DNA of 36,981 nt from a virus (taxonomy: Duplodnaviria; Heunggongvirae; Uroviricota; Caudoviricetes): the IMG/VR virus record IMGVR_UViG_2703718854_000003; one strand, written 5' to 3'. The notes below the pieces were generated by a model. That model made no database searches. It was not told the origin of the DNA and was given only the letters and a program-made list of their open reading frames with translations. Shown in pieces: positions 1 through 36,981 of the stretch. The position numbers and the translations under genes are program-made. Each line of letters starts with the position of its first letter. Positions within the stretch are counted from its first letter, which is position 1.

Positions 1-1053
1 TTACGGGGTAATGCCAACCGCTGCCGCCACTTTGTCGCCACTTGGCAGCGTTGCCAGAGGATTGAAACGGAGCGCCGTTTCCAGATGATCCGGTGCTAGA
101 TGTGCGTAACGCATAGTCATTTTTATGTCGTGATGTCCGAGGATTTTTTGCAAAGCAAGGATATTTCCACCCGACATCATGAAATGCGCCGCAAACGTAT
201 GGCGCAGAACGTGTGTCAGTTGACCGCGAGGGAGCACGATAGACGTTTTTCCCATCACAGATAAAAATTGAAAATAGCAGTCTGTGAAGAAATTGAACCC
301 ATCAAGCGCCATGATCTCTTCGTAAAGTTCTTTACTGATAGGGATGCTTCTGTTTTTCTTCCCCTTCGTTCTTACAAAGGTAATTCGGTATTTGGTCACC
401 TGTGAGCGGGTAAGATTTACAGCTTCACGCCAGCGTGCGCCTGTGCTTAAGCATATCTTAACTACCAGTGCCAGAATTGGGTCCTGACGTTTGCAATCAG
501 CCAGTAATTCAACAATCTGCTCATGGGTAAGCCATGCCATCTCTTTTTCTGCGATGGTGAATTTTCGCATGTTCTCCAGTGGGTTCGGATACGACCATTC
601 GCCCAGGCGGGATAGTTCGCTAAAAACACTACTAAGATAGCTTTGCTCCAGGTTAATGGTGACCGGGCTTGCTCCTTTCTTCCATTTTTCGCTGAAGTAG
701 ATCTCTCCTGTCAGGCGTTTATCTCGATAGTGGGCAAACATTTTAGAGGTGAGATCGGTTGCAATGGGATTTCCCAGAGCGTCAACCATCAACAGCAATT
801 TGTCATAGACATGCTGCCCAGCTGTCAGAGATTTACCATGTAGTTTGAACCATAGCTCAACCACGTCTTTCAGTGTTCGACGATCCACTGATTCACCCAG
901 CCAGGGTTTTGCTTCGGTTTCTTCCATCGTGTGACGCTCAAAAGCCAGAGCTTCGCCTTTGGTGGCGAATTGTTTACGCACACGACGTCCACTACGTCCG
1001 GCAGGGTAACATTCGCAAAGCCATTTTCCTGTGGTGAGTTTTCGTACTGCCAT
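1..1053 (-). CDS. int: Tyrosine recombinase / phage integrase (complete, 350 aa)
   Basis: C-terminal catalytic region LRHTFAAHFMMSGGNILALQKILGHHDIKMTMRYAHL shows the R..H-x-x-R..Y pattern of tyrosine integrases. Stop codon occupies window positions 1-3; position is next to the immunity region as in P2/186. Confidence 0.9.
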   Translation of the reverse strand: MAVRKLTTGKWLCECYPAGRSGRRVRKQFATKGEALAFERHTMEETEAKPWLGESVDRRTLKDVVELWFKLHGKSLTAGQHVYDKLLLMVDALGNPIATDLTSKMFAHYRDKRLTGEIYFSEKWKKGASPVTINLEQSYLSSVFSELSRLGEWSYPNPLENMRKFTIAEKEMAWLTHEQIVELLADCKRQDPILALVVKICLSTGARWREAVNLTRSQVTKYRITFVRTKGKKNRSIPISKELYEEIMALDGFNFFTDCYFQFLSVMGKTSIVLPRGQLTHVLRHTFAAHFMMSGGNILALQKILGHHDIKMTMRYAHLAPDHLETALRFNPLATLPSGDKVAAAVGITP

Positions 1054-1078
1054 AAAAAAGCCCTCATATCAGAGGGCT
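1053..1078 (-). terminator. Intrinsic terminator-like hairpin on minus strand (stem agccctc/gagggct, then T-run) immediately upstream of the int start codon
   Basis: Read on the minus strand: AGCCCTC-TGATAT-GAGGGCT-TTTTTT-ATG(int). The GAGGG arm doubles as the only SD-like sequence for int. Confidence 0.5.
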
Positions 1079-1139
1079 AAATTTAACTGTATATTTAAAC
1101 AGTTATCAATGTATGTTTAGGGTGAAATAAACATTGGCC

Positions 1140-2129
1140 TCACTCCTGTGCTTTTTCAGCGGTACTTGGCTTTAGTTTTTCTTTGGTTGAATCCCATAAA
1201 GATTGGATTCCCGGAGGGAGTTCTGTTTTGTCAGAAAATGCAGAGTTACCAGACATATTCCAGTCTTTAAAGACTAACACAGCATCTTCTTTTGTTGACG
1301 TGGAACCATAAATTTGCAGGAATACTTGCCCAAACATTAGTGCATGTCTTCTATCTTTTCTCAAAATTGATTCATGGGTATATTTTTTAGAGTTGCCAAG
1401 GCAAATATATGCTAGCCAAGAAAGAATGGAAATACCAATTAAACCACGTGTGAAAAAATAAAATAGCTCAAAGCCTTTAACATTGTTGAAGTCAATTGTG
1501 GCGTAGAGTGTATAAAATGATGCACATACAGCAAGTAGCCCGAAAATGCAGCCAGTAAAAGCCCATACTTGCGACATTCTAATGAAATATAAGTCATCTG
1601 AACTTAGTTCACTTTTAACGCTATCGACATATCCTGGTATTTTCTCATCAATCCTTTCTTGTTGTACTCGGCTTTGTAATTCGCTGTTAGAAGCTTCAAG
1701 TTGCTTTATTCTAGATACGGCTTGCTCAATAATTGCTTCTTTTTCAGAATTTAGTTTTTCTAAATTCTCATTCCGAAGATGTAACGTAGCTTTGGACTCT
1801 TCAGCCTCCAATAAACGTTTGGTATATGATCGCATTATCTCTCGAAGATGTTTTTGTTCTTTTATTAATTCATCTATCTTATTGTTTTCATTAATAAAAA
1901 TATCTCCAGCTTTATCGCTGTAGTTCATTTTTTCTTGCTGGGCTAATTTCCAGTAGTATTCTCTGAATTTATCAAGTTCACCTTTATTTAATAAGTCGAC
2001 TAAGTAGGCGCGTTCATTTTCATTAAATTTATGCAGATTTTCATTTAAAATATTATAAAGATCTTTCCATTCGCAATTAACTTTTTCAACATAATCGTTG
2101 TTTTCATTTTTTTTATTTTCAGAATTCAT
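1140..2129 (-). CDS. Hypothetical protein with N-terminal coiled-coil and C-terminal transmembrane helices; AT-rich cargo gene directly downstream of cI
   Basis: ORF-track frame 1140-2207; start placed at internal ATG (MNSENKK...) preceded by AAAGGAA, 10 nt after the CI stop. Heptad-like charged region (EKLNSEKEAIIEQAVSRIKQLEASNSELQ) followed by hydrophobic segments (WAFTGCIFGLLAVCASFYTLY; LIGISILSWLAYICLG). No family recognised. Confidence 0.6.
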   Translation of the reverse strand: MNSENKKNENNDYVEKVNCEWKDLYNILNENLHKFNENERAYLVDLLNKGELDKFREYYWKLAQQEKMNYSDKAGDIFINENNKIDELIKEQKHLREIMRSYTKRLLEAEESKATLHLRNENLEKLNSEKEAIIEQAVSRIKQLEASNSELQSRVQQERIDEKIPGYVDSVKSELSSDDLYFIRMSQVWAFTGCIFGLLAVCASFYTLYATIDFNNVKGFELFYFFTRGLIGISILSWLAYICLGNSKKYTHESILRKDRRHALMFGQVFLQIYGSTSTKEDAVLVFKDWNMSGNSAFSDKTELPPGIQSLWDSTKEKLKPSTAEKAQE

Positions 2130-2139
2130 GTATGTTCCT

Positions 2140-3078
2140 TTAAATTTCCTTTGAAAAAACGCAACAACATTTTGCGATGGTTGTAATGTCTTCAAGCTTA
2201 CAAACAAAATCAGTTGTATCTGATGTGATTTTTACTTTTCCAACTGGAATTCTTGTTAATTTTCTTAAACTTACTTTACCTTCAATCTCAATCAACCAAC
2301 TACCATCTGAAACATCATCATATTCTGTATCTGCAATAAAGGTTTTTCCTTCTGCGGTAACTCCAATAGGTTTTTTCAATCCGGAAGGTATAAGCGTCTT
2401 GTCAAATGCTAAGTAGCCTTCATCATGTAATTTACCGTCAATGATTGTTTGGTGTTTAAGTTGGGCTACAGAGCTGGAATTATCGATAAATTTGGGGCCA
2501 TTGCCGTTTGTGAGCCAGAGTAATGAAGTTCCTGTTTCAAGAGCGCATTGAATGATCCAATCGCTAGGAAACGTGTCTCGTAAGTACCTGTTTGCTACAG
2601 TGCTTTTTGAAACCTGCAAATGGTTTGCTAGGGCTTGTCGGGTGCTAAAGCCGTAGGCTGCGACTAAGCGATCAATTGCCGCCTTCCCTCCTTTATTAGG
2701 ATTTATGCTGGTCTCGATTGGGAACTTTTGGGCTATTGAGTTAGTTCTATCCAGGTCATCAGATTTGGTATGGGCTAAACGTTCATCATTTAATAAAACT
2801 GAGGATGATTCACAGCTGATTCCCGATGCCAACCAGTCGATAGATGCGCCGGTCTCTATACTGCAAATTATCACCCAGTCAGCAGGAAATGTGTCACGAG
2901 CATACCTGTTAGCCATCGTGCTTTGTGAGATACCCAGATGATTGCAAAATGCTTGCCGCGAAGTAAAACCATACGCAACAAGTATACGCTCAATTACTTT
3001 CTGTCCCCCACGGTTTTGCATTATTGAAGTTTTTAGACTCTCGCTAATATGGCGAAATGTGTTTTTTTGAGTTGACAT
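2140..3078 (-). CDS. cI: CI-type immunity repressor (phage 186 CI family) with tandemly duplicated N-terminal HTH domain
   Basis: Two consecutive copies of the motif (V/A)IxRLVAAYGF(T/S)(S/T)RQA..NHL..S.ST.ANRY.RDTFP.DW(I/V)I.C(S/A).ETG.S..WL (roughly aa 27-84 and 134-191), then a C-terminal domain (SDGSWLIEIEGKVSLRKLTRIPVGKV) resembling 186 CI as I recall it. Divergent from the Apl-like gene. Confidence 0.75.
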   Translation of the reverse strand: MSTQKNTFRHISESLKTSIMQNRGGQKVIERILVAYGFTSRQAFCNHLGISQSTMANRYARDTFPADWVIICSIETGASIDWLASGISCESSSVLLNDERLAHTKSDDLDRTNSIAQKFPIETSINPNKGGKAAIDRLVAAYGFSTRQALANHLQVSKSTVANRYLRDTFPSDWIIQCALETGTSLLWLTNGNGPKFIDNSSSVAQLKHQTIIDGKLHDEGYLAFDKTLIPSGLKKPIGVTAEGKTFIADTEYDDVSDGSWLIEIEGKVSLRKLTRIPVGKVKITSDTTDFVCKLEDITTIAKCCCVFSKEI

Positions 3079-4971: not shown

Positions 4972-5825
4972 GCACCATCCTGAAATGGGCGGGAAATAAA
5001 ACCGCCATTATGTCCGAACTGAAAAAACACCTTCCTGCTGGCCCGCGACTGGTTGAACCTTTCGCGGGTTCCTGTGCTGTGATGATGGAGACGGATTACC
5101 CCAGCTATCTTGTTGCGGATATTAATCCTGATTTAATCAACCTCTATAAAAAGGTTGCTGCTGATTGCGAGGCGTTTATATCTCGTGCCAGAGCTTTATT
5201 TGAGGAAGCAAACAGGGAGTTGGCTTATTACAACATAAGACAGGAGTTTAATTACTCCACTGAAATTACTGATTTCATGAAAGCGGTATATTTCCTGTAT
5301 CTCAATCGTCATGGTTACCGTGGGTTATGTCGTTATAACAAGAGCGGGCATTTCAACATTCCATACGGTAATTATAAAAATCCGTATTTCCCTGAAAAAG
5401 AAATTCGCGCATTTGCAGAGAAAGCCCAGCAAGCAACGTTTATCTGCGCCAGCTTTGATGAAACGCTGGCGATGCTGCAGGTGGGGGATGTGGTGTATTG
5501 CGATCCGCCTTATGACGGTACGTTTTCCGGCTATCACACTAACGGCTTCACTGAAGATGACCAGTATCACCTGGCATCTGTTCTTGAATATCGATCATCA
5601 GAAGGTCATCCAGTCATTGTTTCTAACAGTGACACATCCCTGATCCGTTCGCTGTATCGAAATTTCACTCACCACTACATCAAGGCAAAACGCAGCATCG
5701 GCGTGTCGGCTGGCGAGAGTAAATCTGCAACAGAAATCATCGCTGTTTCTGGGGCGCGCTGCTGGGTGGGATTTGATCCTTCGCGTGGCGTGGATAGTTC
5801 TGCCGTGTACGGAGTGCGTGCATGA
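4968..5825 (+). CDS. dam: DNA adenine methyltransferase (Dam-like, GATC N6-adenine MTase family)
   Basis: N-terminal SAM-binding motif LKWAGNK...PFAGSCAV and catalytic DPPY motif (VVYCDPPY). Start chosen at ATG 4968 overlapping the upstream stop (ATGA), not the ORF-track start 4908. Confidence 0.85.
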
Positions 5826-8236
5826 GCCATGCTGATATGAACAACTGCAGCGGCTTTAACGAGGCCGCCGCAGCATTCTCATGGAACAGCCCGAAAAAGG
5901 CTATTAACCCTTATCTGGACCTGGCGGAAGTTGCGCCGGTTTCTGCGCTTTCAAACCTGATCACTCTGTACGCTGCCGATAACGAGCAGGAACAACTGCG
6001 CCGCGAGGCACTGAGTGATCAGGTTTGGGAGCGTTATTTCTTTAATGAATCCCGTGATCCTGTCCAGCGCGAAATGGAGCAGGATAAGTTCATTAGCCGG
6101 GCAAAGTTGGCGCATGAGCAGCAGCGTTTTAACCCGGACATGGTCATTCTGGCAGACGTTAACGCCCAGCCTTCCCATATCAGCAGGCCGCTGATGCAAC
6201 GTATTGAATACTTCAGCAGCCTTGGCAGGCCAAAGGCTTATTCCCGCTATTTACGTGAGACGATTAAGCCATGTCTGGAACGGCTGGAGCATGTACGCGA
6301 CAGTCAGCTATCCACTTCTTTTCGCTTTATGGCAAGCCATGAAGGGCTGGACGGCCTGCTGATTCTGCCTGAAATGAGTCAGGATCAGGTGAAACGCCTG
6401 TCCACCCTTGTTGCTGCGCATATGAGCATGTGCCTTGATGCAGCTTGTGGCGATTTGTATGCCACCGATGACGTTAAGCCAGAAGAAATCCGCAAGACAT
6501 GGGAAAAGGTGGCAGCAGAAACCCTGCGACTGGATGTCATACCGCCTGCGTTTGAGCAACTCCGCCGGAAAAGAAACCGCCGTAAACCCGTGCCCTATGA
6601 ACTCATTCCGGGTTCGCTGGCGCGTATGTTGTGCGCCGATTGGTGGTACCGGAAATTATGGAAGATGCGTTGCGAATGGCGGGAAGAGCAGTTGCGTGCT
6701 GTTTGCCTGGTCAGCAAAAAAGCATCTCCCTATGTCAGCTATGAAGCCATGATGCATAAACGTGAGCAGCGCCGTAAGTCGCTGGAGTTTTTCCGTTCTC
6801 ATGAACTGGTGAACGAAGACGGCGACACGCTGGACATGGAGGATGTGGTAAACGCCAGCAGCAGCAACCCTGCGCATCGCCGCAATGAGATGATGGCCTG
6901 TGTTAAAGGTCTGGAGCTTATCGCGGAAATGCGCGGTGACTGCGCCGTTTTCTACACCATCACCTGTCCGTCACGTTTCCATTCCACGCTAAATAACGGC
7001 AGGCCCAACCCGACCTGGACAAATACGACGGTAAGACAAAGCAGTGATTATCTGGTCGGCATGTTTGCTGCATTTCGTAAGGCGATGCACAAAGCCGGAT
7101 TGCGCTGGTATGGCGTGCGGGTGGCTGAGCCGCATCATGACGGTACAGTTCACTGGCACCTGTTGTGTTTTATGCGCAAAAAAGATCGCCGCACCATTAC
7201 TGCTTTGTTGCGTAAGTTTGCCATTCGTGAAGACCGCGAGGAGCTGGGTAATAACACGGGACCACGCTTTAAGTCTGAGCTGATAAACCCGCGCAAAGGT
7301 ACGCCAACAAGCTACATCGCGAAATACATCAGTAAGAACATTGACGGGCGTGGTCTGGCTGGCGAGATCAGCAAGGAAACGGGTAAATCCCTGCGTGATA
7401 ACGCTGAATACGTTAATGCCTGGGCGTCTCTGCATCGTGTTCAGCAATTCCGCTTCTTTGGCATTCCGGGGCGTCAGGCTTACCGTGAACTGCGATTGCT
7501 GGCTGGTCAGGCGGCAAGGCAACAGGGGGACAAAAAAGCAGGTGCGCCGGTACTGGATAACCCGCGCCTTGATGCAATCCTGGCTGCTGCTGATGCTGGT
7601 TGTTTTGCCACCTACATCATGAAGCAGGGCGGCGTACTGGTTCCCCGCAAATATCACCTCATCAGAACTGCTTATGAAATCAACGAAGAACCGACCGCAT
7701 ATGGCGATCACGGTATTCGTATTTATGGCATCTGGTCACCCATTGCAGAGGGCAAGATCTGCACTCATGCGGTGAAGTGGAAAATGGTTCGTAAGGCCGT
7801 TGACGTTCAGGAGGCGGCAGCCGACCAGGGCGCTTGCGCCCCTTGGACTCGTGGCAATAACTGTCCCCTTGCTGAAAATTTGTACCAACAAGGGAAAGAC
7901 AAATCAGCTGATGGGGATACCAGAACGGATATCACCCGTATGGATGACAAGGAGTTGCACGATTACCTGCACAGTATGAACAAAAAAGAGCGCCGGGAAC
8001 TGGCTGCAAGGTTACGCCTGGTGAAACCGAAACGGCGTAGAGACTACAAACAGCGAATTACAGACCATCAACGACAGCAGCTCGTCTATGAACTGAAGTC
8101 CAGAGGATTTGATGGCAGCGAGAAAGAGGTCGATTTACTCCTTCGCGGCGGCAGCATTCCGTCAGGAGCAGGCCTGCGTATCTTCTATCGGAACCAGCGT
8201 TTGCAGGAAGATGATAAGTGGCGGAACCTGTATTAA
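5822..8236 (+). CDS. A: Rolling-circle replication initiator endonuclease (P2 gpA family)
   Basis: 804 aa; HUH-type motif [10 protein letters not shown] and active-site tyrosine motif [12 protein letters not shown]; position after the early operon as in P2/186. Confidence 0.85.
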
Positions 8237-8328
8237 TTACGCGGGTTAACAATTCGTGCTCTTAATAATACCCGGCATATCAGGCTGATGAACGTAAAAA
8301 AACGTTTTACATCAGTAAGATTATTATA

Positions 8329-8348
8329 TACTGTAAATATTAACAGTG
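8329..8348 (+). promoter_or_regulatory. LexA box (SOS operator) overlapping a sigma70-like promoter
   Basis: TACTGTAAATATTAACAGTG matches CTGT-N8-ACAG exactly (CTGT 8331-8334, ACAG 8343-8346); TTTACA (8306-8311) and TATACT (8327-8332) are candidate -35/-10 elements. Confidence 0.7.
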
Positions 8349-8390
8349 GTTATGCATACAGTATTGCTTGTGGTGTCATAGGAGGAAAGA

Positions 8391-8578
8391 TGCAGGACTA
8401 TTTTTGGGAGTCTTTGAAGCTCCAACGCATTGATTTTTTTCTTAAGCTTGTAGCGGCTAGTGAGTGTAGTGATGAAGAGAAGGGGTTGGCCCTGCAGTGG
8501 GTTTCTGAACTGACAGATGAACTCATGGCAAAAATCAGAAGCCACGAATACAACCGCTCAATGGATGTCATCAGCTGA
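8391..8578 (+). CDS. Hypothetical small protein, first gene of the LexA-controlled operon (possible Tum-like antirepressor component)
   Basis: ATG at 8391 preceded by GGAGGAAAG; 62 aa. The Tum-like role is inferred from position only. Confidence 0.45.
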
Positions 8579-8588
8579 GGGGACTTTT

Positions 8589-8822
8589 ATGCGCATTGAA
8601 ATAATGATCGATAAAGAGCAGAAGATTAGCCAGTCTACCCTGGACGCCCTTGAATCCGAGCTTTACCGCAATCTGCGCCCCCTATATCCCAAAACGGTAA
8701 TTCGTATCCGTAAAGGTAGCTCTAACGGTGTGGAACTGACCGGACTGCAACTGGACGAAGAAAGGAAGCAAGTGATGAAAATTATGCAGAAGGTGTGGGA
8801 AGACGACAGCTGGCTGCATTAA
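8589..8822 (+). CDS. DinI-family protein
   Basis: 78 aa; MRIEIMIDKEQ...ALESELYRNL...KIMQKVWEDDSWL resembles E. coli DinI (MRIEV...ALAGELSRRI...EILQETWESADDWF) as I recall it; ATG preceded by GAGGGGA. Confidence 0.7.
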   Translation: MRIEIMIDKEQKISQSTLDALESELYRNLRPLYPKTVIRIRKGSSNGVELTGLQLDEERKQVMKIMQKVWEDDSWLH

Positions 8823-9092
8823 GAAACGTTGCTGGCGTCTGAACTTGCTTCTGGCGTCAGCAAGGTTGAACAACGAGCTATGCGAGGCGTTAGTGTCAAT
8901 TTGTTATCTTAACCACTATATATGCCAGGAAATTAACAGTTCTTAAGAAACCGCTTGCATGATCGAGCGCATTGAACTTAAGTTTAAGTAACGAAATCAA
9001 CAGATGATATTGTTGTCTAAATTTTAAAGATAATCTGTTGAGGTTGTAGGCGTCGGAGTGTAGACTTCCGCGCCATGTGAAAAGGGGGAGTT

Positions 9093-9308
9093 ATGTCAAG
9101 CATCGCCGCATTTAGCCTGGGTAACCCAGTTGAACGTCTGGCAAGGGTTCTTAAAGAGAACCAGGACAAACTCAATCTTAGTAAAGATGGTTTTGTGTCC
9201 GTAGACTTGTCTAACAAAAGAGCAATGGATGCCATCAAGGCACAGATGGATAAGCTTGAAGGCATCAAAACGAGCACTGTAAAAGAGAAAACTAATAGAA
9301 CCAGATAA
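9093..9308 (+). CDS. Hypothetical small protein (71 aa)
   Basis: Strong SD (AAAGGGGGAG) 3-12 nt upstream of ATG; stop overlaps the start of the next gene (TAATG). Confidence 0.55.
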   Translation: MSSIAAFSLGNPVERLARVLKENQDKLNLSKDGFVSVDLSNKRAMDAIKAQMDKLEGIKTSTVKEKTNRTR

Positions 9309-10150
9309 TGGCAACATTACTTTTAGCAGTGATTTTGGTTAGTGGTTTTATTTATGTAAACCTATCACTTTCAACAAGATACCGATATAAGCGTTCCAAC
9401 GGCTGGGACGCTTATTTTTTTGTGGCTGCCTGGGGTATCGTTTTTTTTCTCCTTGGCGGTTTTTTCACCTTTATTTTGAACGTCAGCGGAGGGTTTCGTT
9501 GGCTGGCTAATGCCTTGAATCTAACACCTGACAGTTTTAATGGCATGTTGTCTTCATCGAAAGACAAACTTCAAAGAATAAATGAAATCAAACAGATAGC
9601 ATGGGTTATGATTTCAATTGTTCTCGCTGCGATTTCAGGTTTTGGAAATAAGTTACGCACATCACGTGGAGATCGTCGCTGGGATGCCTTAGCTAAAGCT
9701 GTGGGTAATAACGCTTTCGAATCATTACTCATGGAAGCGTCCGCAAGACAGTTTCCGATCATAGCAACTCTGTCGTCTCGCAAAATCTATGTTGGTCTTG
9801 TTACTTGTCCGGCGTTAGAAAACGGGCTTTCAGAACACCTTGAACTTCTCCCGATGTTAAGCGGATATCGGGATAAAGATGATCTAACGATTAGTATCAC
9901 GACTAACTATCACCAACATTATCTTGATAGTGGTGTGATAAGTGGAATGTCTCGGCTTAATATCGAAGATTTCCGTGTGCTCATACCAAAAGATGAGGTT
10001 GAAACAATTTCGTTTTTTGATACTGAGACATATAACAAATTTAAAGAAAATGAAGCCAGGGATAGAAAGAACTGTCGAAAGATTGGTAGTAAAAGTGCAT
10101 CTTCGCGCAGCAAGCGTGCAGCAGATGCTGAGTCAAATGATCGTGCATGA
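9308..10150 (+). CDS. Hypothetical membrane protein (three N-terminal TM helices plus C-terminal soluble domain)
   Basis: Hydrophobic segments LLLAVILVSGFIYV, FFVAAWGIVFFLLGGFFTFIL, IAWVMISIVLAAISGF; translationally coupled to the 71-aa ORF; followed by an intrinsic terminator. Confidence 0.6.
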   Translation: MATLLLAVILVSGFIYVNLSLSTRYRYKRSNGWDAYFFVAAWGIVFFLLGGFFTFILNVSGGFRWLANALNLTPDSFNGMLSSSKDKLQRINEIKQIAWVMISIVLAAISGFGNKLRTSRGDRRWDALAKAVGNNAFESLLMEASARQFPIIATLSSRKIYVGLVTCPALENGLSEHLELLPMLSGYRDKDDLTISITTNYHQHYLDSGVISGMSRLNIEDFRVLIPKDEVETISFFDTETYNKFKENEARDRKNCRKIGSKSASSRSKRAADAESNDRA

Positions 10151-10198
10151 CTATGCTGCATGAGATCGCATGATCGTTTGAGGATCGTTTTTGCTAAG

Positions 10199-10222
10199 GC
10201 CCGCCAGAACTGGCGGGCTTTT
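10199..10222 (+). terminator. Rho-independent terminator
   Basis: GC stem GCCCGCC-AGAACT-GGCGGGC followed by TTTT. Confidence 0.75.
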
Positions 10223-10267
10223 GCGTAGATCATGCACCTGCATGAAAACTACTACATAAAGCGGGCA

Positions 10268-10286
10268 GGCGTGGCGGGGATACGAG
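10268..10286. other. Candidate cos (cohesive-end) core of the prophage
   Basis: GGCGTGGCGGGGATACGAG resembles the P2/186 19-nt cohesive-end sequence as I remember it (GGCG-A/T-GGCGGGGAAAGCA-C/T). Lies in the region where P2 has cos, but is separated from Q by the retron-like cassette. Confidence 0.45.
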
Positions 10287-10319
10287 CGCGCGCTGAGCTG
10301 CATTCACTTGAATAATCCG

Positions 10320-10500
10320 TATGTTAGTGCTAGCCTAGCTGTGCCCTTAGCAGGAAAGTACATTCAATATGTTACTTTCTAGTGGTTGGTGTTTAGCCAA
10401 CTCGTATGGATTGCTTGGTATCTCGACACAAGTTAGCCTTGTGTCATTTATAGACACCAGGCTAACTTGTGTCTCGGGAACTCTTGTATGGGCATTAATT
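10320..10500 (+). ncRNA. Candidate retron msr-msd non-coding RNA (boundaries approximate)
   Basis: Structured non-coding stretch immediately upstream of the effector-RT pair. Small stem-loops (AAAGTACA-TTCAATA-TGTTACTTT at 10346-10369; GTTGG-TGTTTAG-CCAAC) are followed by a long hairpin at 10425-10473 (14-bp perfect stem GACACAAGTTAGCC/GGCTAACTTGTGTC enclosing inner stem GTGTC/GACAC), typical of an msd. The flanking a1/a2 inverted repeats could not be identified. Confidence 0.45.
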
Positions 10501-10503
10501 GTT

Positions 10504-11421
10504 ATGTGGTTTAAACATCCTAGATATTTACGAGCAAAAGAAAATTTTATTTCAAGTTTTTTTCCAAGTAACTTGAATTCTTTTAATTATATCCTGCCAA
10601 AAGTATTATTTATTTGTGGAGGAGATGAGACTTATTGTTCAAATAGAGGGATGCTGGAAAAATATATTGCTAAGCATCATAAAGAATTTGTTACTTTTCG
10701 AGCAGAATTAGCATGGGAAGTAATTAGCAATTTAGGAACTCATAGTAATGTGAATGCGCTATCACTTGAAGAATGGCTTGCGGATTTTTCTGATGTGGTA
10801 ATTATTCTCGTAGAGAGTTATGGCACTGTAGCTGAATTGGGCGCATTTTCATTAAGTCCTGTTTTACGTAAAAAACTTCTTCCTATATTAGATAAAAAGT
10901 TTGAAAGTCATAAGTCATTTATCAATACAGGGCCCGTAAAATGGGTTGATAGTGAATCCAAATTTGGCCCTACAATCTATACTGAATTTGAGACAATTTT
11001 AACGTGTATGCCTAAAATAAATGAAAGGCTAAATAGGAAAGTTCAATCAAACATAACTAATACAAATTCAATAGGTGATTACAAATATTCACCAAAAATT
11101 TTTTTATTTTTTGTGCTCGTTGTTATATCTTCTTTAGGTCCAATAACAATTCCTGAGATTATTAATATCACAGGTAGGTTGATAAATTATAAAATTAATA
11201 AAAATATTTCATTTGTTGTTTCTATTGGAGTTGCCCTTGGGATTTTTAAGGAAAGTCGATTTGAGGGCGTGACCCATTATTCATGTGTCGATTATATTAA
11301 ATTTTTTAATCATGAAAAGATGAAAGATTTAGTTGAAAGTATTCAACGAAGTAGAGCTAGATCATTATCCGATTTAATAATGATATCTAAATTCAAAGCA
11401 GAATTAGAAAGGATCATGTGA
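10504..11421 (+). CDS. Candidate retron effector: NDT-like (nucleoside deoxyribosyltransferase-like N-glycosidase) domain plus C-terminal putative DNA-binding domain
   Basis: AT-rich gene directly abutting the RT. Motifs KVLFICGGDE and DVVIILVESYGTVAELGAFS resemble NDT-like folds found in type II retron effectors. ORF-track start 10369 overlaps the hairpin, so start placed at in-frame ATG 10504 (10651 also possible). Domain assignment is from motif memory. Confidence 0.5.
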   Translation: MWFKHPRYLRAKENFISSFFPSNLNSFNYILPKVLFICGGDETYCSNRGMLEKYIAKHHKEFVTFRAELAWEVISNLGTHSNVNALSLEEWLADFSDVVIILVESYGTVAELGAFSLSPVLRKKLLPILDKKFESHKSFINTGPVKWVDSESKFGPTIYTEFETILTCMPKINERLNRKVQSNITNTNSIGDYKYSPKIFLFFVLVVISSLGPITIPEIINITGRLINYKINKNISFVVSIGVALGIFKESRFEGVTHYSCVDYIKFFNHEKMKDLVESIQRSRARSLSDLIMISKFKAELERIM

Positions 11422-11422
11422 T

Positions 11423-12352
11423 ATGTTAATTGAGTATCTAGCTAAAGTTTTACTGTTAGAAGCTGATTTTATATTAAAAGTTGCAAATGATGCTAACTCG
11501 CATTATGGTAAATTTTCTGTACCTAAAAAAGGCGGTGGGACAAGAATCGTCTATCAGCCCTCTAAAGAATTAAAAGTTTTGCAGAGATTACTTCATGATA
11601 ATGTTCTGTCGAAATTGCCGATTCATCCAAATGCTGTAGCATATCAGCAGGGTTCATCAGTGTTCAAACATGCAAGCATTCACAAAGCTAAACGTTTTAT
11701 GCTTAAGATGGACTTTGAAGGTTTTTTTGATTCAATTAAGAAAAGTGATGTTGAGAGATTTATAAACGACAACAAGCATTTCTTCAGTGATGATTGGTCA
11801 AAGGATGATACTGATTTGCTGGTGAAAATAGTATGCTTTAACGGGAGACTGACTATGGGTGCTGTTAGTTCCCCTGTGGTAAGCAATGCTATATGCTATG
11901 AATTAGATCATATATTGAATGAATTTTGTCTTTCAAAAGGTATAACATATACACGCTATGCTGATGATATGTACTTCTCAACAAACGAAGAAAATGTATT
12001 GAAGCAAATACCACCTTTTTTACGCTCGAATTTAAAAAATTTGAAATACCCATCAAAACTATGGATTAATAGAAAAAAGACACTGCATATGTCAAAGAAA
12101 AATAAAATGATGGTTACGGGTGTGACTTTGACAACAGATGGTGGAGTATCCTTAGGGAGAGATAAAAAAAGGATGGTTAAATCGCTTATTTTTAAATGGG
12201 AGGCTCTTGATGAGAAGAAAAGGCTATTTCTTCAAGGATATTTATCGTATTGCAAAAGTGTTGAGCCATTATTTATTAATAGGCTTTGTGCGAAATATTC
12301 ATCAGAGCTGATTGATGAAATCCAGAGATATCAACCTGTAGTATCAGAATAA
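11423..12352 (+). CDS. Retron-type reverse transcriptase
   Basis: RT motifs in order: PKKGGGTRIVYQPS (motif 1/2), LKMDFEGFFDSI (motif A), SSPVVSN (motif B'), YTRYADDMYF (motif C, YADD) and the retron-typical VTG triplet (KMMVTGVTL). About 309 aa, similar in layout to the Ec86 RT. AAAGGA SD; start 2 nt after the effector stop. Confidence 0.8.
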   Translation: MLIEYLAKVLLLEADFILKVANDANSHYGKFSVPKKGGGTRIVYQPSKELKVLQRLLHDNVLSKLPIHPNAVAYQQGSSVFKHASIHKAKRFMLKMDFEGFFDSIKKSDVERFINDNKHFFSDDWSKDDTDLLVKIVCFNGRLTMGAVSSPVVSNAICYELDHILNEFCLSKGITYTRYADDMYFSTNEENVLKQIPPFLRSNLKNLKYPSKLWINRKKTLHMSKKNKMMVTGVTLTTDGGVSLGRDKKRMVKSLIFKWEALDEKKRLFLQGYLSYCKSVEPLFINRLCAKYSSELIDEIQRYQPVVSE

Positions 12353-12358
12353 CGTGTG

Positions 12359-12389
12359 TGCGCATGAAAATTTCCATGCGCATTTTCTT
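12359..12389 (+). terminator. Intrinsic terminator after the retron-like operon (overlaps the 3' end of Q)
   Basis: Stem TGCGCATG/CATGCGCA with 8-nt loop, followed by TTTTCTT on the plus strand. Confidence 0.6.
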
Positions 12390-13413
12390 AAAAACAGTAG
12401 TCATTAAATGAAATAATTTCTTTTCCAGCCCAGTTATTCAGTGATTCAAAATTCTTTTGCAATGGCATTAACTCATTCCGCACAAACACTTTGCTTGCCT
12501 TCTCCACATCCCCAAATCCCCCAACACTATTAGGCATAATCCCCATCATCTGCGGCGGCACGCGGTGTGCCGCCATCATGTCATCGCGACTAACATTTTT
12601 GATATTCAAAAACTCATCCTTCGCCGCGACTTCTGACAATGGGATGATCTGAAGCCCGTCTTTTTTGCCGTTAGGCGAGTACATAAACAGGTTGCGGAAG
12701 TTGCCTGGCCCTTTGGCGCTTTTCATCGCGTTGCGGAGGTTGTTCACATCCTCCTGGTTCTGAGCGGCATCGGTCATGTACATTATGAATCCTGCATGGC
12801 TGCCATTAATATAATATTTGCGTCGGAACAGCGTGGCGGACTCGTTGAGCAGGGCTGACGGAATGGCAGAAAGATAACCGGGCAGGCCGTAGATCTCCTG
12901 GTTGATATCGGGTTCCATCAGATGAAAGATGCTGCCTTTCGTGAACTGATACGGCTGGGTTGTCATGCCGTATTGCACAAACCAGTAGGTATCCAGGTCT
13001 AACCCACGTCGGGTGTATTTTGCCAGAGCAGGCTCAAGGGCGATAACTTCACCGAACCGGTTCGTGCGTTTCTCCAGGTATGCGTTACCAAATACCAGAT
13101 AGTCCTGCACAAAACGTGAAAAAGCCTGCTGGCTGAGAAGCGGGTGAGGGATGTAGGTACTGGTCAGAATGTTGCATTTCACCGCAATTGGTGAACTGTG
13201 ATGCACGGCAGCGCGGAAGGTTCGCGCCAGTCCGTCAAAACTCACTGGCGGCTCATACCAGCGATCTGTCTGTACGCATTCCACATAGTCCAGCAGTTCG
13301 CGGCGGTCCAGAACAGGAACGGGATCGCCAAAGCTGAATGCTTCGGCTGAAGTCTGGCTTTTATGCTGAATCTGGTTCGTCGACACAGCGCGGTTCTTCT
13401 TACTCTTTCCCAT
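12388..13413 (-). CDS. Q: Portal protein (P2 gpQ-like)
   Basis: About 341 aa, N-terminus MGKSKKNR...; lies in the Q-P pair divergent from O-N-M-L as in P2; start chosen at ATG 13413. Confidence 0.8.
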   Translation of the reverse strand: MGKSKKNRAVSTNQIQHKSQTSAEAFSFGDPVPVLDRRELLDYVECVQTDRWYEPPVSFDGLARTFRAAVHHSSPIAVKCNILTSTYIPHPLLSQQAFSRFVQDYLVFGNAYLEKRTNRFGEVIALEPALAKYTRRGLDLDTYWFVQYGMTTQPYQFTKGSIFHLMEPDINQEIYGLPGYLSAIPSALLNESATLFRRKYYINGSHAGFIMYMTDAAQNQEDVNNLRNAMKSAKGPGNFRNLFMYSPNGKKDGLQIIPLSEVAAKDEFLNIKNVSRDDMMAAHRVPPQMMGIMPNSVGGFGDVEKASKVFVRNELMPLQKNFESLNNWAGKEIISFNDYCF

Positions 13414-32720: not shown

Positions 32721-33817
32721 ATTTCAGCTCTGAACTGCTTAACAAAGGCAACAAAACTCCCGCATTCAGCATCAGTATTGAGGGCAGGGATATCACCACT
32801 GTCCAGGATAATCGCCTGATGAGTCTGACGCTGACGGACAATCGGGGCTTTGAAGCAGACCAGCTTGATCTGGAGCTGGACGACGCCGACGGAAAAATCG
32901 TGCTGCCGCGCCGTGGTGCGGCCATTACGCTGGCGCTGGGCTGGAAAGGGCAGCCGCTTTTCCCGAAAGGGGCATTCACGGTGGACGAGATTGAACACAC
33001 TGGCGCACCGGACCGCCTGACTATCCGGGCGCGAAGTGCTGATTTTCGTGAAACGCTGAATACCCGCCGTGAAAAGTCGTGGCACAAGACTACGGTCGGG
33101 GAAGTAGTGAAGGAAATAGCTGCGCGTCACAAACTGAAGATGGCACTGGGTAAAGACCTGTCGGATAAACCCGTGGATCATATAGACCAGACTAATGAGA
33201 GTGACGGCAGTTTTTTGATGCGGCTGGCGCGCCAGTACGGTGCCATTGCATCGGTGAAAAATGGCAATCTGTTATTCATCCGGCAGGGACAGGGCAAAAG
33301 CGCCAGCGGTAAACCACTACCGGTGATCACTATCACACGTAAGGACGGCGACAGTCACCGCTTTACCCTGGCAGATCGCGGAGCTTACACGGGGGTAATT
33401 GCCAGCTGGTTGCATACCCGCGAACCCGCGAAGAAAGAAAGCACTACGGTGAAGCGTAAGCGCAGGACTAAGAAGCAGAAGAAAGAGCCGGAAGCGAAGC
33501 AGGGCGATTACCTGGTGGGGACGGATGAAAACGTGCTGGTACTTAATCGCACTTATGCCAACCGGAGCAACGCCGAACGAGCGGCAAAAATGCAGTGGGA
33601 ACGCCTGCAACGCGGCGTTGCGTCATTCTCGCTACAACTGGCGGAAGGGCGGGCAGATCTCTACACGGAAATGCCAGTGAAAGTCAGTGGCTTTAAACAG
33701 CCGATAGATGATGCGGAATGGACTATTACGACTCTGACACATACTGTCAGCCCGGATAACGGTTTTACAACCAGTATTGAACTCGAAGTGAAGATTGATG
33801 ATTTCGAAATGGAATGA
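32717..33817 (+). CDS. D: Tail protein / late control protein (P2 gpD-like)
   Basis: 366 aa; GTG start overlapping the U stop; synteny T-U-D-ogr. Confidence 0.75.
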   Translation: MNFSSELLNKGNKTPAFSISIEGRDITTVQDNRLMSLTLTDNRGFEADQLDLELDDADGKIVLPRRGAAITLALGWKGQPLFPKGAFTVDEIEHTGAPDRLTIRARSADFRETLNTRREKSWHKTTVGEVVKEIAARHKLKMALGKDLSDKPVDHIDQTNESDGSFLMRLARQYGAIASVKNGNLLFIRQGQGKSASGKPLPVITITRKDGDSHRFTLADRGAYTGVIASWLHTREPAKKESTTVKRKRRTKKQKKEPEAKQGDYLVGTDENVLVLNRTYANRSNAERAAKMQWERLQRGVASFSLQLAEGRADLYTEMPVKVSGFKQPIDDAEWTITTLTHTVSPDNGFTTSIELEVKIDDFEME

Positions 33818-33907
33818 TTCTTCGCAATGGAGAACTTTTAAGTTTGCAAAATGGAATAATACGGTATCATTATTGTGAATTTAGCAAAAATGGGGAGAAC
33901 TCGAAAA

Positions 33908-34126
33908 ATGATGATTTGCCCACTGTGTGGAAGTGCCGCCCATACTCGCAGCAGTTTTCAGGTATCTTCATTGACCAAAGAGCGTTACAACCAGTGCCAG
34001 AACATTAACTGCAGCCATACTTTTGTTACCCATGAAACTTTTGTTCGTTCGATTGCAACGCCAAAAGAGTCAAATCCGGTTCAGCCGCATCCAATGAAAT
34101 CAGGACAGGTGGTGCTCTCTCTTTGA
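33908..34126 (+). CDS. ogr: Ogr/Delta-family zinc-finger late transcription activator
   Basis: MMICPLCGSAAHTRSS...KERYNQCQNINCSHTF matches the P2 Ogr C2-C2 finger (CPLC...H.R...KERYHQCQNVNCSATF) as I recall it; start at ATG 33908 or 33911 rather than 33875. Confidence 0.85.
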   Translation: MMICPLCGSAAHTRSSFQVSSLTKERYNQCQNINCSHTFVTHETFVRSIATPKESNPVQPHPMKSGQVVLSL

Positions 34127-34205
34127 CGCTGCCGCCATTTTGTCGCCATCGTTAAAAAGCAGTGCTTCTAACATCATGATTTTAAAAGGCATAAATTTCA
34201 GACAA

Positions 34206-34249
34206 CAAAAAACCCATCAACCTTGAACCGAAATGGCGGGGTTGATGGG
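34206..34249 (-). terminator. Terminator-like hairpin downstream of ybjL (minus strand), also a candidate prophage/host junction landmark
   Basis: 10-bp stem CCCATCAACC/GGTTGATGGG; on the minus strand it is followed by TTTTTT. Loop is long (17 nt). Confidence 0.45.
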
Positions 34250-34361
34250 CTCCACAAAATGGGGACATCAAAGAAAAGCAGTGGCACTAATTAAGACTGA
34301 TGCCCTGCGGAAAAGTTCTGCGGTTGTGCAAAAAAATTTCATTTTCAGGGCAACTTCAGTT

Positions 34362-36047
34362 TTATCCTAATCCTGGCCATACCATGACGATGATTGTCCC
34401 TGCCAGCGTCAGCAGGACGTTGGCGATTGCATAGGTGCCCGCATAGCCCAGCGCCGGGATGTTACTGCGAGCTGTATCACTGATGATCTCCATTGCCGGC
34501 GCGCAGGTACGTGCGCCCATCATTGCGCCGAACAACAGCGCGCGGTTCATTCGCAATACATAAGCACCGAACAAGAAACAGATAACCACGGGCACCAGAC
34601 TGACAATCAATCCGGCAATCAACATCTGACCGCCAATCGCGCCCAGGCCGTTATTAATACCGCTACCGGCGCTCAGACCAACGCCTGCCATAAACACCAT
34701 CAAGCCGAACTCTTTCACCATGCTTAATGCACCCTGCGGAATGTAACCGAAGGTCGGGTGGTTAGCACGCATAAAGCCCAGCATAATTCCGGCGAATAAC
34801 AACCCGGCAGCGTTCCCCATGCCGAAACTGAATGTGCTGAACTGGAAGGTGATCATCCCGATCATCAGCCCAATAACAAAGAAGGCGCAGAATGCCAGCA
34901 GGTCAGTGACCTGGCTGTGAATCGAGATAAAGCCGATGCGATCGGCGATGGTTTTTACGCGGCGGGCATCGCCGCTGACTTGTAAAACGTCACCTTTGTT
35001 AAGCACGACGTTGTCATCTATCGGCATCTCAATCTGGCTACGAATGACGCGGTTAAGGAAGCAACCGTGATCGGTCAACTTCAGTTGTGCGAGACGTTTA
35101 CCTACAGCGTTATGGTTTTTAACGACCACTTCTTCAGTGACGATACGCATGTCGAGAAGGTCACGATCGAAAACTTCTTTACCGTTACGGAAGCTGGGAT
35201 CGAGTCGGGCATGGGCGTCGGGATAGCCTACCAACGCTATTTCATCGCCCATTTGTAGCACGGCATCACCGTCTGGATTTGCCAGAATCCCGTTACGTCG
35301 AATACGTTCAATGTAGCAGCCGGTTTGTCGATAAATACCCAGTTCACGCAGATTTTTGCCGTCGGTCCAGGCCACCAGTTCCGGGCCGACGCGATAGGCG
35401 CGGATCACCGGTAAATAAACCTTACGGTTGGCATCAGTGTCCAGGCCACGTTCGCGGGCGATTTGCTGGGCGCTGGTCTGTAAGTCCTGATGCTGCAATT
35501 TCGGCAAGTAACGCGCACCAACAATCAAACTCACCAGACCGATTAAATAGGTTAAGGCATACCCGAGGCTCAGATTATCCAGTGCCAGTGAGAGCTGCCT
35601 GCTTTCCATGCCGGAATGACGCAGTGTATCGCCAGCACCGACCAGAACCGGTGTCGACGTCATAGAGCCTGCTAACATACCGGCCGTCAGGCCAATATCC
35701 CAGCCAAACAGCTTACCTAACCCTAAGGCGATCACCAGCGCACTGCCAACCATCACCAGTGCTAACATTAGGTAATTTTTCCCATCGCGAAAAAAAATGG
35801 AAAAAAAGTTCGGTCCGGCTTCGACCCCGACGCAGAAAATAAACAGCATAAAGCCAAGATTAAGCGCATCGGTGTTAATGCTGAAATGTTGTTGGCCTAA
35901 TAACAGCGATACGACTAAAACGCCAATGGAATTACCCAGTTGGATCGAACCAAGTCGTAACTTTCCGAGACATAGCCCAAGCGCGAGGACCACAAATAAT
36001 AACAGAATGTAATTCCCATTTAACAATTCGGCGACGTTTATATTCAC
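34362..36047 (-). CDS. ybjL: Putative AAE-family transporter YbjL (host gene)
   Basis: 561-aa polytopic membrane protein with central soluble duplicated domains; N-terminus [20 protein letters not shown]... recognised as E. coli YbjL from memory. Confidence 0.8.
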
Positions 36048-36316
36048 GGAGGCTAACTTCTTGTTTACTAGTAAGCTGTTGAAAGAAATGGTAATTTACG
36101 ATAATGTTTTTTACCAGAATTCAGGGCGCAGATTCATTCAGCGCACCTAAACGATAGTAAAGTAACAATATATTTTACTAGTGTAATCACATTAGGTATC
36201 AACGGCTATATGAATTGCGTTGGCCTATATTAGCATGGAATGCGAAGCGGCTTTATCTTACTGAACGCCACACTGGCGAAAAATGTGTTCGATAGACGCA
36301 GTGTCAGGAGGAACGA

Positions 36317-36694
36317 GTGAAACATAAACAACGTTGGGCGGGGGCAATCTGCTGTTTTGTCCTCTTCATTGTGGTGTGCCTTTTTCTGGCGACGCACATG
36401 AAAGGCGCTTTTCGGGCTGCCGGGCATCCTGAAATCGGCTTGCTATTTTTCATTCTTCCTGGAGCAGTCGCCAGCTTCTTTTCACAGCGTAGAGAAGTCC
36501 TGAAACCTCTGTTTGGCGCAATGCTGGCGGCACCCTGTTCGATGCTCATTATGCGGCTGTTTTTTTCACCGACGCGCTCATTCTGGCAAGAGCTGGCATG
36601 GTTACTAAGCGCGGTGTTCTGGTGTGCGCTGGGGGCACTGTGTTTCTTATTTATCAGTAGTTTGTTTAAACCACAGCACAGAAAAAATCAGTAA
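36317..36694 (+). CDS. ybjM: Inner membrane protein YbjM (host gene)
   Basis: 125-aa membrane protein, divergent from ybjL and next to grxA, matching the E. coli ybjL-ybjM-grxA order. Confidence 0.7.
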   Translation: MKHKQRWAGAICCFVLFIVVCLFLATHMKGAFRAAGHPEIGLLFFILPGAVASFFSQRREVLKPLFGAMLAAPCSMLIMRLFFSPTRSFWQELAWLLSAVFWCALGALCFLFISSLFKPQHRKNQ

Positions 36695-36714
36695 AGCCCT
36701 CAACGCGAGGGCTT
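36694..36714. terminator. Bidirectional terminator hairpin between convergent ybjM and grxA
   Basis: AAGCCCTC-AACGC-GAGGGCTT between the two convergent stops. Confidence 0.5.
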
Positions 36715-36723
36715 GTCAGACGA

Positions 36724-36981
36724 TCAGGCGTCCAGATTTTCTTTCACCCATGCAGCAAAATCGGTATAGCCGCCGATATGTTGCTGATCGACAAAAATCT
36801 GCGGCACGGTTTCTACGGGTTTACCTGCCTTTTGTTGTAGATCTTCTTTAGTGATCCCTTCCGCACGAATATCTACATACTGATACTGAAAATCATCGCG
36901 TTCATTGCTCAATTTCTCAGCCAGATCTTTTGCACGCACACAGTAAGGGCAACCCGAACGACCAAAAATAACGGTTTGCAT
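36724..36981 (-). CDS. grxA: Glutaredoxin 1 (host gene)
   Basis: 85 aa with CPYC active site (MQTVIFGRSGCPYCVRAKDL...); start codon is the last 3 nt of the window. Confidence 0.85.
   Translation of the reverse strand: MQTVIFGRSGCPYCVRAKDLAEKLSNERDDFQYQYVDIRAEGITKEDLQQKAGKPVETVPQIFVDQQHIGGYTDFAAWVKENLDA

Follow-up and report, generated by a model that had tools for sequence, protein, structure and literature searches.

How does a prophage whose repressor appears to lack a RecA-dependent self-cleavage domain respond to DNA damage, and could a short LexA-controlled operon downstream of its replication gene provide the link? This question is raised by a locus in a 36,981-nucleotide stretch of DNA (hereafter, the window), which is a segment of an Escherichia coli chromosome whose ybjL is identical at 561/561 positions to ybjL of E. 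coli HS. The element in the window is a complete P2/186-like prophage that carries, among other genes, int (1-1053, minus strand), a 186-type CI, apl, cII, dam, and gpA, as well as a 329-aa moron of membrane/coiled-coil character; its chromosomal site adjoins ybjL, as in HS. We conclude that the locus is very probably the "split tum" SOS operon of a Fels-2-like (P2/186 family) E. coli prophage, with a small trigger protein, TumA, and a DinI-like accessory protein, TumB.

A P2/186-like prophage with a 186-type repressor

The replication gene A of the prophage (gpA, 5822-8236, plus strand) was identified through PF05840 (E = 1.4e-126). The tumA-like gene follows it directly on the same strand, and the matching gene order is found in 186, PSP3, Fels-2, and HS. 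The presumed target of TumA is encoded on the minus strand at 2140-3078: it is a 186-type CI of 312 aa, in which Pfam recognizes two Phage_CI_repr HTH domains and a Phage_CI_C domain. A Pfam search of this protein gave no match to Peptidase_S24, and, judged by its domain content, the window CI is a repressor without the RecA-dependent self-cleavage domain. It is 39% identical to Fels-2 CI, 35% identical to 186 CI, and 46% identical to HS CI.

For comparison, related loci were gathered with a close-family alignment of the 62-aa product of the tumA-like gene, which yielded a set of 40 genome loci. The 62-aa family is spread throughout the Enterobacterales, and the two-gene module is present in 1124 of 5426 complete E. 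coli genomes, or about one fifth, where it is annotated just as "hypothetical protein" next to "DinI-like family protein".

The SOS promoter is overlapped by a double LexA operator

The -35 hexamer of the promoter, TTTACA (8306-8311, plus strand), is identical in Fels-2 and E. coli HS and is placed relative to the LexA box like the annotated -35 of the 186 promoter p95. The -10 region, TATACTGT (8327-8334, plus strand), can be read either as TACTGT (8329-8334), which gives a spacer of 17 nt, or as TATACT (8327-8332), which gives a spacer of 15 nt. The layout matches the annotation of 186, where p95 is given as TTCACA / TACTGT and the LexA site opens with the -10 hexamer TACTGT itself. A generic promoter and terminator scan called neither this SOS promoter nor a terminator; the promoter was missed because TACTGT agrees with TATAAT at just three of six positions.

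The preliminary description had proposed a consensus LexA operator over a plausible promoter, and this is what we found: box 1, TACTGTAAATATTAACAGTG, occupies 8329-8348 and covers the -10 region. It scored 21.0 bits on a symmetrised weight matrix compiled from 28 literature examples of E. coli SOS boxes, on which absolute scores are approximate; the median of the training sites was 19.9 bits, and the best score among 200 shuffles of the window was 19.8 bits. The same description overlooked a second box, CAGTGGTTATGCATACAGTA (8344-8363), which scored 14.0 bits, ranks as the fourth best site in the window, and overlaps box 1 at an offset of exactly 15 nt.

A LexA box of at least 14 bits lies upstream of the orthologous gene in all 40 genome loci and also in six reference phages from five genera (186, PSP3, Fels-2, a Yersinia phage, ev015, and ESSI-2). 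The double-box arrangement with the +15 offset recurs in about 21 of the 40 related loci, where the second box reaches up to 19.8 bits, while the operators of 186, PSP3, and the loci of Pantoea/Erwinia type contain a single box. Presence of the double box goes along with that of dinI (14/21 vs 3/17, Fisher p = 0.004), an association that is descriptive only because the loci are not phylogenetically independent.

The arrangement resembles that of colicin operons, which also have two LexA boxes at a 15-nt offset and whose sequence is almost like that of the window (colicin, TATACTGTATATAAAACCAGTGGTTATATGTACAGTATT; window, TATACTGTAAATATTAACAGTGGTTATGCATACAGTATT). A 46-nt version of the operator taken from Fels-2 matches 1204 plasmid records (colicin/klebicin promoters), and in the two plasmid matches examined it lies ~40 nt upstream of colicin-like bacteriocin genes. 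The two systems differ in that the colicin operator controls a bacteriocin and has both boxes downstream of the -10 in the promoters examined, whereas box 1 of the window overlaps the -10 and the controlled gene acts in prophage induction. At colicin genes, the double SOS box binds two LexA dimers, which results in very tight repression (PMC2994835). We regard the operator in the window as a putative colicin-type double SOS box, with a higher induction threshold as a plausible consequence.

The 62-aa protein is a remote homologue of the N-terminal part of 186 Tum

The tumA-like gene extends from the ATG at 8390 to the TGA at 8578 on the plus strand and encodes a 62-aa protein, the SOS-induced trigger of prophage induction and presumed CI antirepressor of our reading; a Shine-Dalgarno sequence, AGGAGG (8380-8385, plus strand), precedes the start codon by 4 nt. 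The ORF as described earlier is thus present, with its start shifted by one base from 8391 to 8390. It behaves as a real gene, with a median dN/dS of 0.07 across 41 orthologues, while the two out-of-frame readings gave 1.3 and 2.1. Many gene callers report a 96-aa ORF beginning at the ATG at 8288. We rejected this longer form, the extension of which spans the promoter and the operator; it is further disfavoured by the observations that conservation begins at Met-1 of the 62-aa form and that N-terminal extensions vary between loci.

Reference collections say little about this protein. It has no match in Pfam or PADLOC, it belongs to phrog_698 ("unknown function") in PHROGs, and its PGAP label is "hypothetical protein"; the gene is sometimes mislabelled "levan regulatory protein". 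An AlphaFold model (pLDDT 88) predicts a two-helix hairpin with helices at residues 5-23 and 28-61, and a Foldseek search of the PDB with this model brought up nothing beyond generic helical hairpins, with no hit at E <= 0.001. Close relatives are readily found, with 61 of 62 residues identical in ECHS_RS04495 of E. coli HS and 59 of 62 in STM2728 of Fels-2.

The relationship to 186 Tum is far more distant. The tum gene of 186 is undivided: it encodes 146 aa, contains internal starts, and is DinI-like over its C-terminal 77 aa; according to the 186 annotation, the last internal start gives rise to a 77-aa DinI-like product, and truncated Tum "modulates SOS induction". A BLASTP comparison of the 62-aa protein with 186 Tum produced no alignment, and a profile of the close family alone reached 22% with 186 Tum by hhalign, so that detecting the homology requires a broadened profile. 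This was obtained by an exhaustive profile search that collected 88 diverse small relatives of the 62-aa protein. When the broadened profile was compared with 186-type Tum N-termini using hhalign, residues 3-44 aligned on residues 3-44 with 96.4% probability (E = 1.2e-9), while the controls reached 0.1% for the reversed profile and at most 28% for 20 column-shuffled profiles. A Yersinia phage "tum protein" was matched at one place by both queries. The TumA of PSP3 scored 84.9% against the 186-type profile and 34% against the 62-aa family of the window in the same kind of comparison. Taken together, these profile comparisons identify the 62-aa protein as a remote homologue of the N-terminal (antirepressor) part of 186 Tum.

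The second gene of the operon encodes a DinI-like protein

The second gene, tumB, begins at an ATG at 8589, 10 nt after the tumA stop, and ends with the TAA at 8822 (plus strand); its ribosome-binding site, GAGGGGA, lies at 8577-8583 on the same strand. The preliminary description had assigned this gene, ending at 8822, to the DinI family, and the assignment holds. The 77-aa product matches Pfam DinI (PF06183) with 81.3 bits against a cut-off of 24.2 (E = 6.6e-23), covering profile positions 1-63 of 63, and it aligns with the structure of E. coli DinI, 1GHH, over residues 1-75 on 1-77 (E = 2.7e-6). The W-E-acidic helix at the C-terminus is recognizable in this comparison, with "QKVWEDDSW" aligned with "QETWESADDW" of 1GHH. 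PHROGs places TumB in phrog_189, "RecA filament binding protein DinI". When it is compared with 186 Tum, 41% identity is found over Tum residues 71-145 (E = 3e-24), and it is identical at 77 of 77 positions both to STM2726.1 of Fels-2 and to the DinI-like ECHS_RS04500 of HS.

The dinI-like gene is present in 19 of the 40 related loci and absent from the other 21, which indicates that evolution can dispense with its contribution; likewise, the LexA box and tumA occur without dinI in ev015, ESSI-2, and the Yersinia phage. In Gifsy prophages, non-polar deletions of dinI had no measurable effect on induction (PMC3121763). Host DinI binds RecA filaments and modulates the coprotease activity of RecA, according to the sources cited as refs 27-29 of PMC3121763. 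TumB is probably an accessory protein that, like host DinI, would bind RecA filaments and tune the strength or duration of the SOS response.

Elements flanking the operon

At the 3' end of the conserved module, a stem-loop (8827-8867) is followed by a near-invariant motif, GGTTGAACAACGAG...GCGAGGCGTTA, the whole element spanning 8827-8892 on the plus strand and having no U-run. The stem-loop has a minimum free energy of -28.9 kcal/mol (z = -2.3), and 8 of its 17 predicted pairs show compensatory changes across 13 loci that include PSP3. Similarity to the relatives stops at about 8893, and the cargo located 3' of dinI in the window is a type II-A retron. An Rfam scan of 8200-12500 came back empty, with neither the stem-loop nor any retron msr/msd recognized.

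Elsewhere in the window, at 1085-1104, lies its strongest LexA box (26.1 bits), which marks a probable second LexA-controlled site. This box falls between the hexamers TTGATA and TAAATT of a promoter on the minus strand, immediately upstream of int, and the int LexA-box module is conserved ahead of int in 4LV2017, vB_EcoM-813R9, and E. coli HS, though the upstream gene differs.

Relationship to known SOS-induction modules

The closest counterparts of the locus are those of the HS prophage (ECHS_RS04495 and ECHS_RS04500) and Fels-2 (STM2728 and STM2726.1), both of which have the two genes, the promoter, the double LexA operator, and the position after gpA in common with the window; the HS promoter region is nearly identical to that of the window. 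What sets the window apart from these two is its CI, which is heteroimmune and has a second HTH domain, the cargo after dinI (the retron in the window), and the 3' stem-loop, which is absent from both HS and Fels-2.

PSP3 is split in the same manner, with a tumA of 60 aa separated by a few bases from a dinI-like tumB of 77 aa, and it has both a LexA box over the promoter and the 3' stem-loop. Its annotation describes tumA as "similar to 5' end 186 tum; UV induction of prophage" and tumB as "similar to dinI and 3' end of 186 tum". It differs in having a single LexA box and a TumA that is only a remote relative of the window family. The split arrangement is therefore not new, a point that the preliminary description had missed: PMC3121763 states that tum is split by a stop codon in Fels-2 and PSP3, and the primary source for Fels-2 is Bunny, Liu & Roth 2002. 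The same article relays a personal communication, and hence second-hand information, that the upstream half in PSP3 is the antirepressor.

The SOS operon of 186 itself (p95, tum, orf97) resembles the window in having a LexA site that starts from the -10 TACTGT, a position after gene A, and a 186-type CI. The N-terminal region of 186 Tum is homologous to TumA and the DinI-like C-terminal region to TumB, but the two parts are fused in 186 (146 aa with internal starts), where there is also one LexA box and a canonical partial terminator, t95a, with orf97 after it. A functional parallel is provided by the dinI-gfoA/gftA operons of the Salmonella prophages Gifsy-1/2/3, which are likewise LexA-repressed and combine a dinI homologue with a small antirepressor directed against a non-cleavable repressor. 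These differ in that dinI comes first, the phages are lambdoid, and the antirepressor and repressor families are unrelated to those of the window.

At the level of sequence, the locus shows all the features expected of the Tum module known from 186, Fels-2, and PSP3 and of a DinI family member; the corresponding functions have been demonstrated in other elements, on genes that are near-identical or homologous to those of the window. The proposal that it is the equivalent of the LexA-controlled Tum locus of 186 is upheld by its near-identity to HS and Fels-2, the hhalign result, and the position after gpA.

The orthologous gene is required for induction of the HS prophage

The system is already known and common, and it has been tested genetically in a near-identical prophage. 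A 2024 preprint (PMC11195241) describes an in-frame "delta-tum" deletion in the P2-like prophage of E. coli HS, in which the start and stop codons were fused. We mapped its junction primers onto the window: the reverse complement of the 5' junction primer matches 8370-8392 with no mismatches, and the 3' junction primer aligns to 8576-8598 with a single mismatch, continuing into ATGCGCATTG, the start of dinI. The deletion in HS thus removed the orthologue of the 62-aa ORF and spared dinI. Both delta-tum and lexA(Ind-) abolished mitomycin-C-induced lysis and the formation of virion foci (PMC11195241), so the orthologous 62-aa gene and a cleavable LexA are required for induction of the HS prophage. 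Mitomycin C induction with and without a deletion of the operon had been proposed as a check on the locus, and the HS experiment in effect provides it. As to how Tum works, 186 Tum binds CI and blocks its binding to the operator (Shearwin 1998, as cited in PMC3121763).

TumA and CI do not covary

If TumA acted on CI as a strictly cognate partner, the two would be expected to co-vary. In the window, TumA is 95-98% identical to its counterparts in Fels-2 and HS, while the CI is 39-46% identical to theirs, a heteroimmune pairing. Among the related loci, those whose TumA is 95-97% identical encode CIs that are 39-50% identical to the window CI and comprise several immunity types. In a mirror-tree test over 33 loci, the Spearman correlation between TumA and CI was -0.01 for the HTH domain and -0.16 for the C-terminal domain; mean identity over these loci was 79% for TumA, 67% for the CI HTH domain, and 41% for the CI C-terminal domain. 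A locus in Pantoea stewartii pairs a window-type TumA with a 186-type CI.

The lack of covariation counts against strictly cognate binding, although it neither proves nor excludes that TumA binds CI. Either TumA recognizes some portion of CI that is conserved, in which case it might act as a cross-inducer like the Gifsy antirepressors, or its target may not be CI. Four loci had no CI match, which raised the idea of another repressor type as the partner of TumA; this was dropped, as these loci are decayed prophage remnants.

Weighing alternative explanations

These data bear on a variant of the split-tum reading in which TumA is needed for induction but works otherwise than by cognate binding of its own CI, acting on some other pro-lysogenic component or, as a generic cross-inducer, on a feature shared by all 186-type repressors. 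The near-invariance of TumA across CI immunity types, the Pantoea stewartii pairing, and the documented trans-acting antirepressors of the Gifsy phages (PMC3121763) all fit this variant, as does the wording of the HS preprint, which is limited to the statement that Tum "inhibits pro-lysogenic regulators" (PMC11195241). We nonetheless consider it rather unlikely: TumA has its homologue in the antirepressor half of 186 Tum, for which CI binding has been shown biochemically in the work cited by PMC3121763, and the fairly conserved CI HTH domain offers a possible common docking surface, engagement of which would still amount to antirepression of CI.

Could the operon instead serve the host or the prophage mainly as a modulator of the SOS response, by way of its DinI-like protein, with the small ORF being an accessory irrelevant to induction? 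DinI homologues are common LexA-regulated prophage cargo, and neither PGAP, PHROGs, nor Pfam gives the 62-aa ORF a function. Yet deleting the 62-aa gene alone, with dinI intact, abolished induction in HS, and the ORF is kept together with its LexA box in the 21 of 40 loci that have no dinI and is under strong purifying selection, so we judge this explanation very improbable. We give still less credence to the idea that the LexA box arose by coincidence in promoter DNA that is AT-rich and that the operon is not SOS-regulated. The core pattern CTGT-N8-ACAG occurs twice (8331-8346 and 1087-1102) where chance would give 0.49 per window, and 10 of 100 shuffles also gave two matches; however, the full 20-mer outscores every shuffle, the box is retained at one place in 40/40 loci and in five phage genera despite diverged flanks, and lexA(Ind-) blocks induction in HS.

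A model for induction

We therefore return to the split tum operon as the preferred reading and propose the following sequence of events. In the lysogen, LexA, presumed to occupy both boxes of the double operator (8329-8363), would mask the -10 together with the promoter's start region and keep the operon silent. Upon DNA damage, activated RecA would promote self-cleavage of LexA, the promoter would fire, and a bicistronic mRNA would direct the synthesis of the 62-aa TumA and the 77-aa TumB. By analogy with 186 Tum, TumA would then bind the 186-type CI, which is presumably not cut by RecA, and reversibly stop it from binding its operators. With CI off the operators, the early lytic promoter would open, and the prophage would excise and replicate; TumB meanwhile would probably act on RecA filaments and tune the SOS signal.

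Beyond this model, we tentatively suggest a broader picture that we regard as possible yet doubtful as a whole. TumA may be a broad-range antirepressor, most likely one that docks on the HTH shared by heteroimmune 186-type CIs, and could cross-induce P2-like prophages residing in one cell. This would be combined with SOS wiring that has not been described before, in which a colicin-type double operator at tumA sets a high threshold and a separate LexA-gated promoter drives int, its transcript starting inside a terminator hairpin.

Significance

Searches of the literature for the double-operator sequence, and for "tum" together with SOS boxes, returned nothing relevant. We found no description of the double operator or of the lack of TumA-CI covariation in the searchable literature, which is not proof of novelty, and we regard the two as small additions. 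Together with the int LexA box, they are modest leads on induction thresholds and prophage cross-talk, and they leave the basic picture unchanged. The main value of the analysis lies in annotation, in that an unnamed 62-aa gene is assigned as the induction trigger of a widespread prophage module. Recognizing tumA together with its LexA operator would show which P2-like prophages are SOS-inducible, including by DNA-damaging antibiotics.

A LexA box and a candidate promoter precede int

Of all LexA boxes in the window, the one upstream of the integrase gene int (1-1053, minus strand) is the strongest. This box (1085-1104, AACTGTATATTTAAACAGTT) scored 26.1 bits with a weight matrix built from 28 E. 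coli SOS boxes, whose absolute values are approximate. It sits between the two hexamers, TTGATA and TAAATT, of a minus-strand promoter with an 18-nt spacer, and is followed by a hairpin (GCCCTC-tgatat-GAGGGC) and a run of six T residues that adjoin the int ATG, with the int Shine-Dalgarno sequence located within the hairpin. This LexA/promoter/hairpin module (1054-1109, minus strand) also precedes int in the P2-like prophage of E. coli HS and in two phages, 4LV2017 of Klebsiella and vB_EcoM-813R9 of E. coli, even though the upstream gene is not the same; Fels-2 lacks it. One possibility is that the module drives int under SOS control, with transcription beginning within a terminator arm.

The region between int and cI differs from that of relatives

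In the window, the interval from cI to int holds an inserted gene for a 329-aa coiled-coil/membrane protein (1140-2129, minus strand; phrog_2628); relatives carry other genes at this position. A third LexA-like site (1936-1955, TGCTGGGCTAATTTCCAGTA, 15.2 bits) lies inside this gene. The adjacent CI repressor (2140-3078, minus strand; 312 aa) contains two tandem Phage_CI_repr HTH domains, in contrast with the CIs of 33 related loci, HS, Fels-2, and 186, which are 189-222 aa long and have a single such domain. The CI of Klebsiella phage 4LV2017 (313 aa, 47% identical) is of the same two-domain type as that of the window. The prophage adjoins ybjL and ybjM (window 33817-36981), and the P2-like prophage of E. 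coli HS occupies the identical chromosomal site next to these genes, with the ybjL products of the window and HS being identical at 561/561 residues.

Annotation of the tumA-like gene

Many gene callers place the start of the 62-aa tumA-like gene further upstream, at ATG 8288, giving a 96-aa ORF (8288-8578) that would span the promoter and both LexA boxes of the SOS operon. Pfam has no model for the family of the 62-aa protein, which is labeled "unknown function" in PHROGs (phrog_698) and "hypothetical protein" by PGAP, and is now and then called "levan regulatory protein."

A conserved stem-loop separates the SOS operon from variable cargo

Directly 3´ of dinI is a stem-loop with a downstream motif (8827-8892) that marks the boundary between the conserved module and variable cargo. 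Compensatory changes were found at 8 of its 17 pairs across 13 loci, PSP3 included, and the motif 3´ of the stem-loop, GGTTGAACAACGAG...GCGAGGCGTTA, is near-invariant; HS and Fels-2, unlike the window, lack the stem-loop. The element contains no U-run, and the stem-loop had no Rfam match. Candidate roles are those of an atypical terminator, an RNA 3´-end element, or a recombination anchor.

The cargo itself (9093-12352), which follows the SOS operon and precedes the portal gene, has two parts. One comprises two genes, encoding 71 aa (phrog_9843) and 280 aa (phrog_3630) proteins; the other is a type II-A retron consisting of an NDT-like effector (10369-11421; PADLOC NDT_II-A, 1.2e-53) and a reverse transcriptase (11423-12352; RT_II-A, 4.4e-105), although an Rfam scan of 8200-12500 did not locate its msr/msd RNA. 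Since all cargo genes share a strand with the SOS operon, read-through from the LexA-controlled promoter into the cargo is conceivable.

Prophage remnants retain tumA-like genes

Four tumA-bearing loci (L011, L021, L039, and L048, each near its position 10001) are decayed prophage remnants in which gpA is truncated or absent and CI is missing. All four nevertheless retain the tumA-like gene together with an intact, high-scoring LexA box, a pattern of sequence retention suggesting that the host may keep SOS-inducible orphan antirepressor genes.
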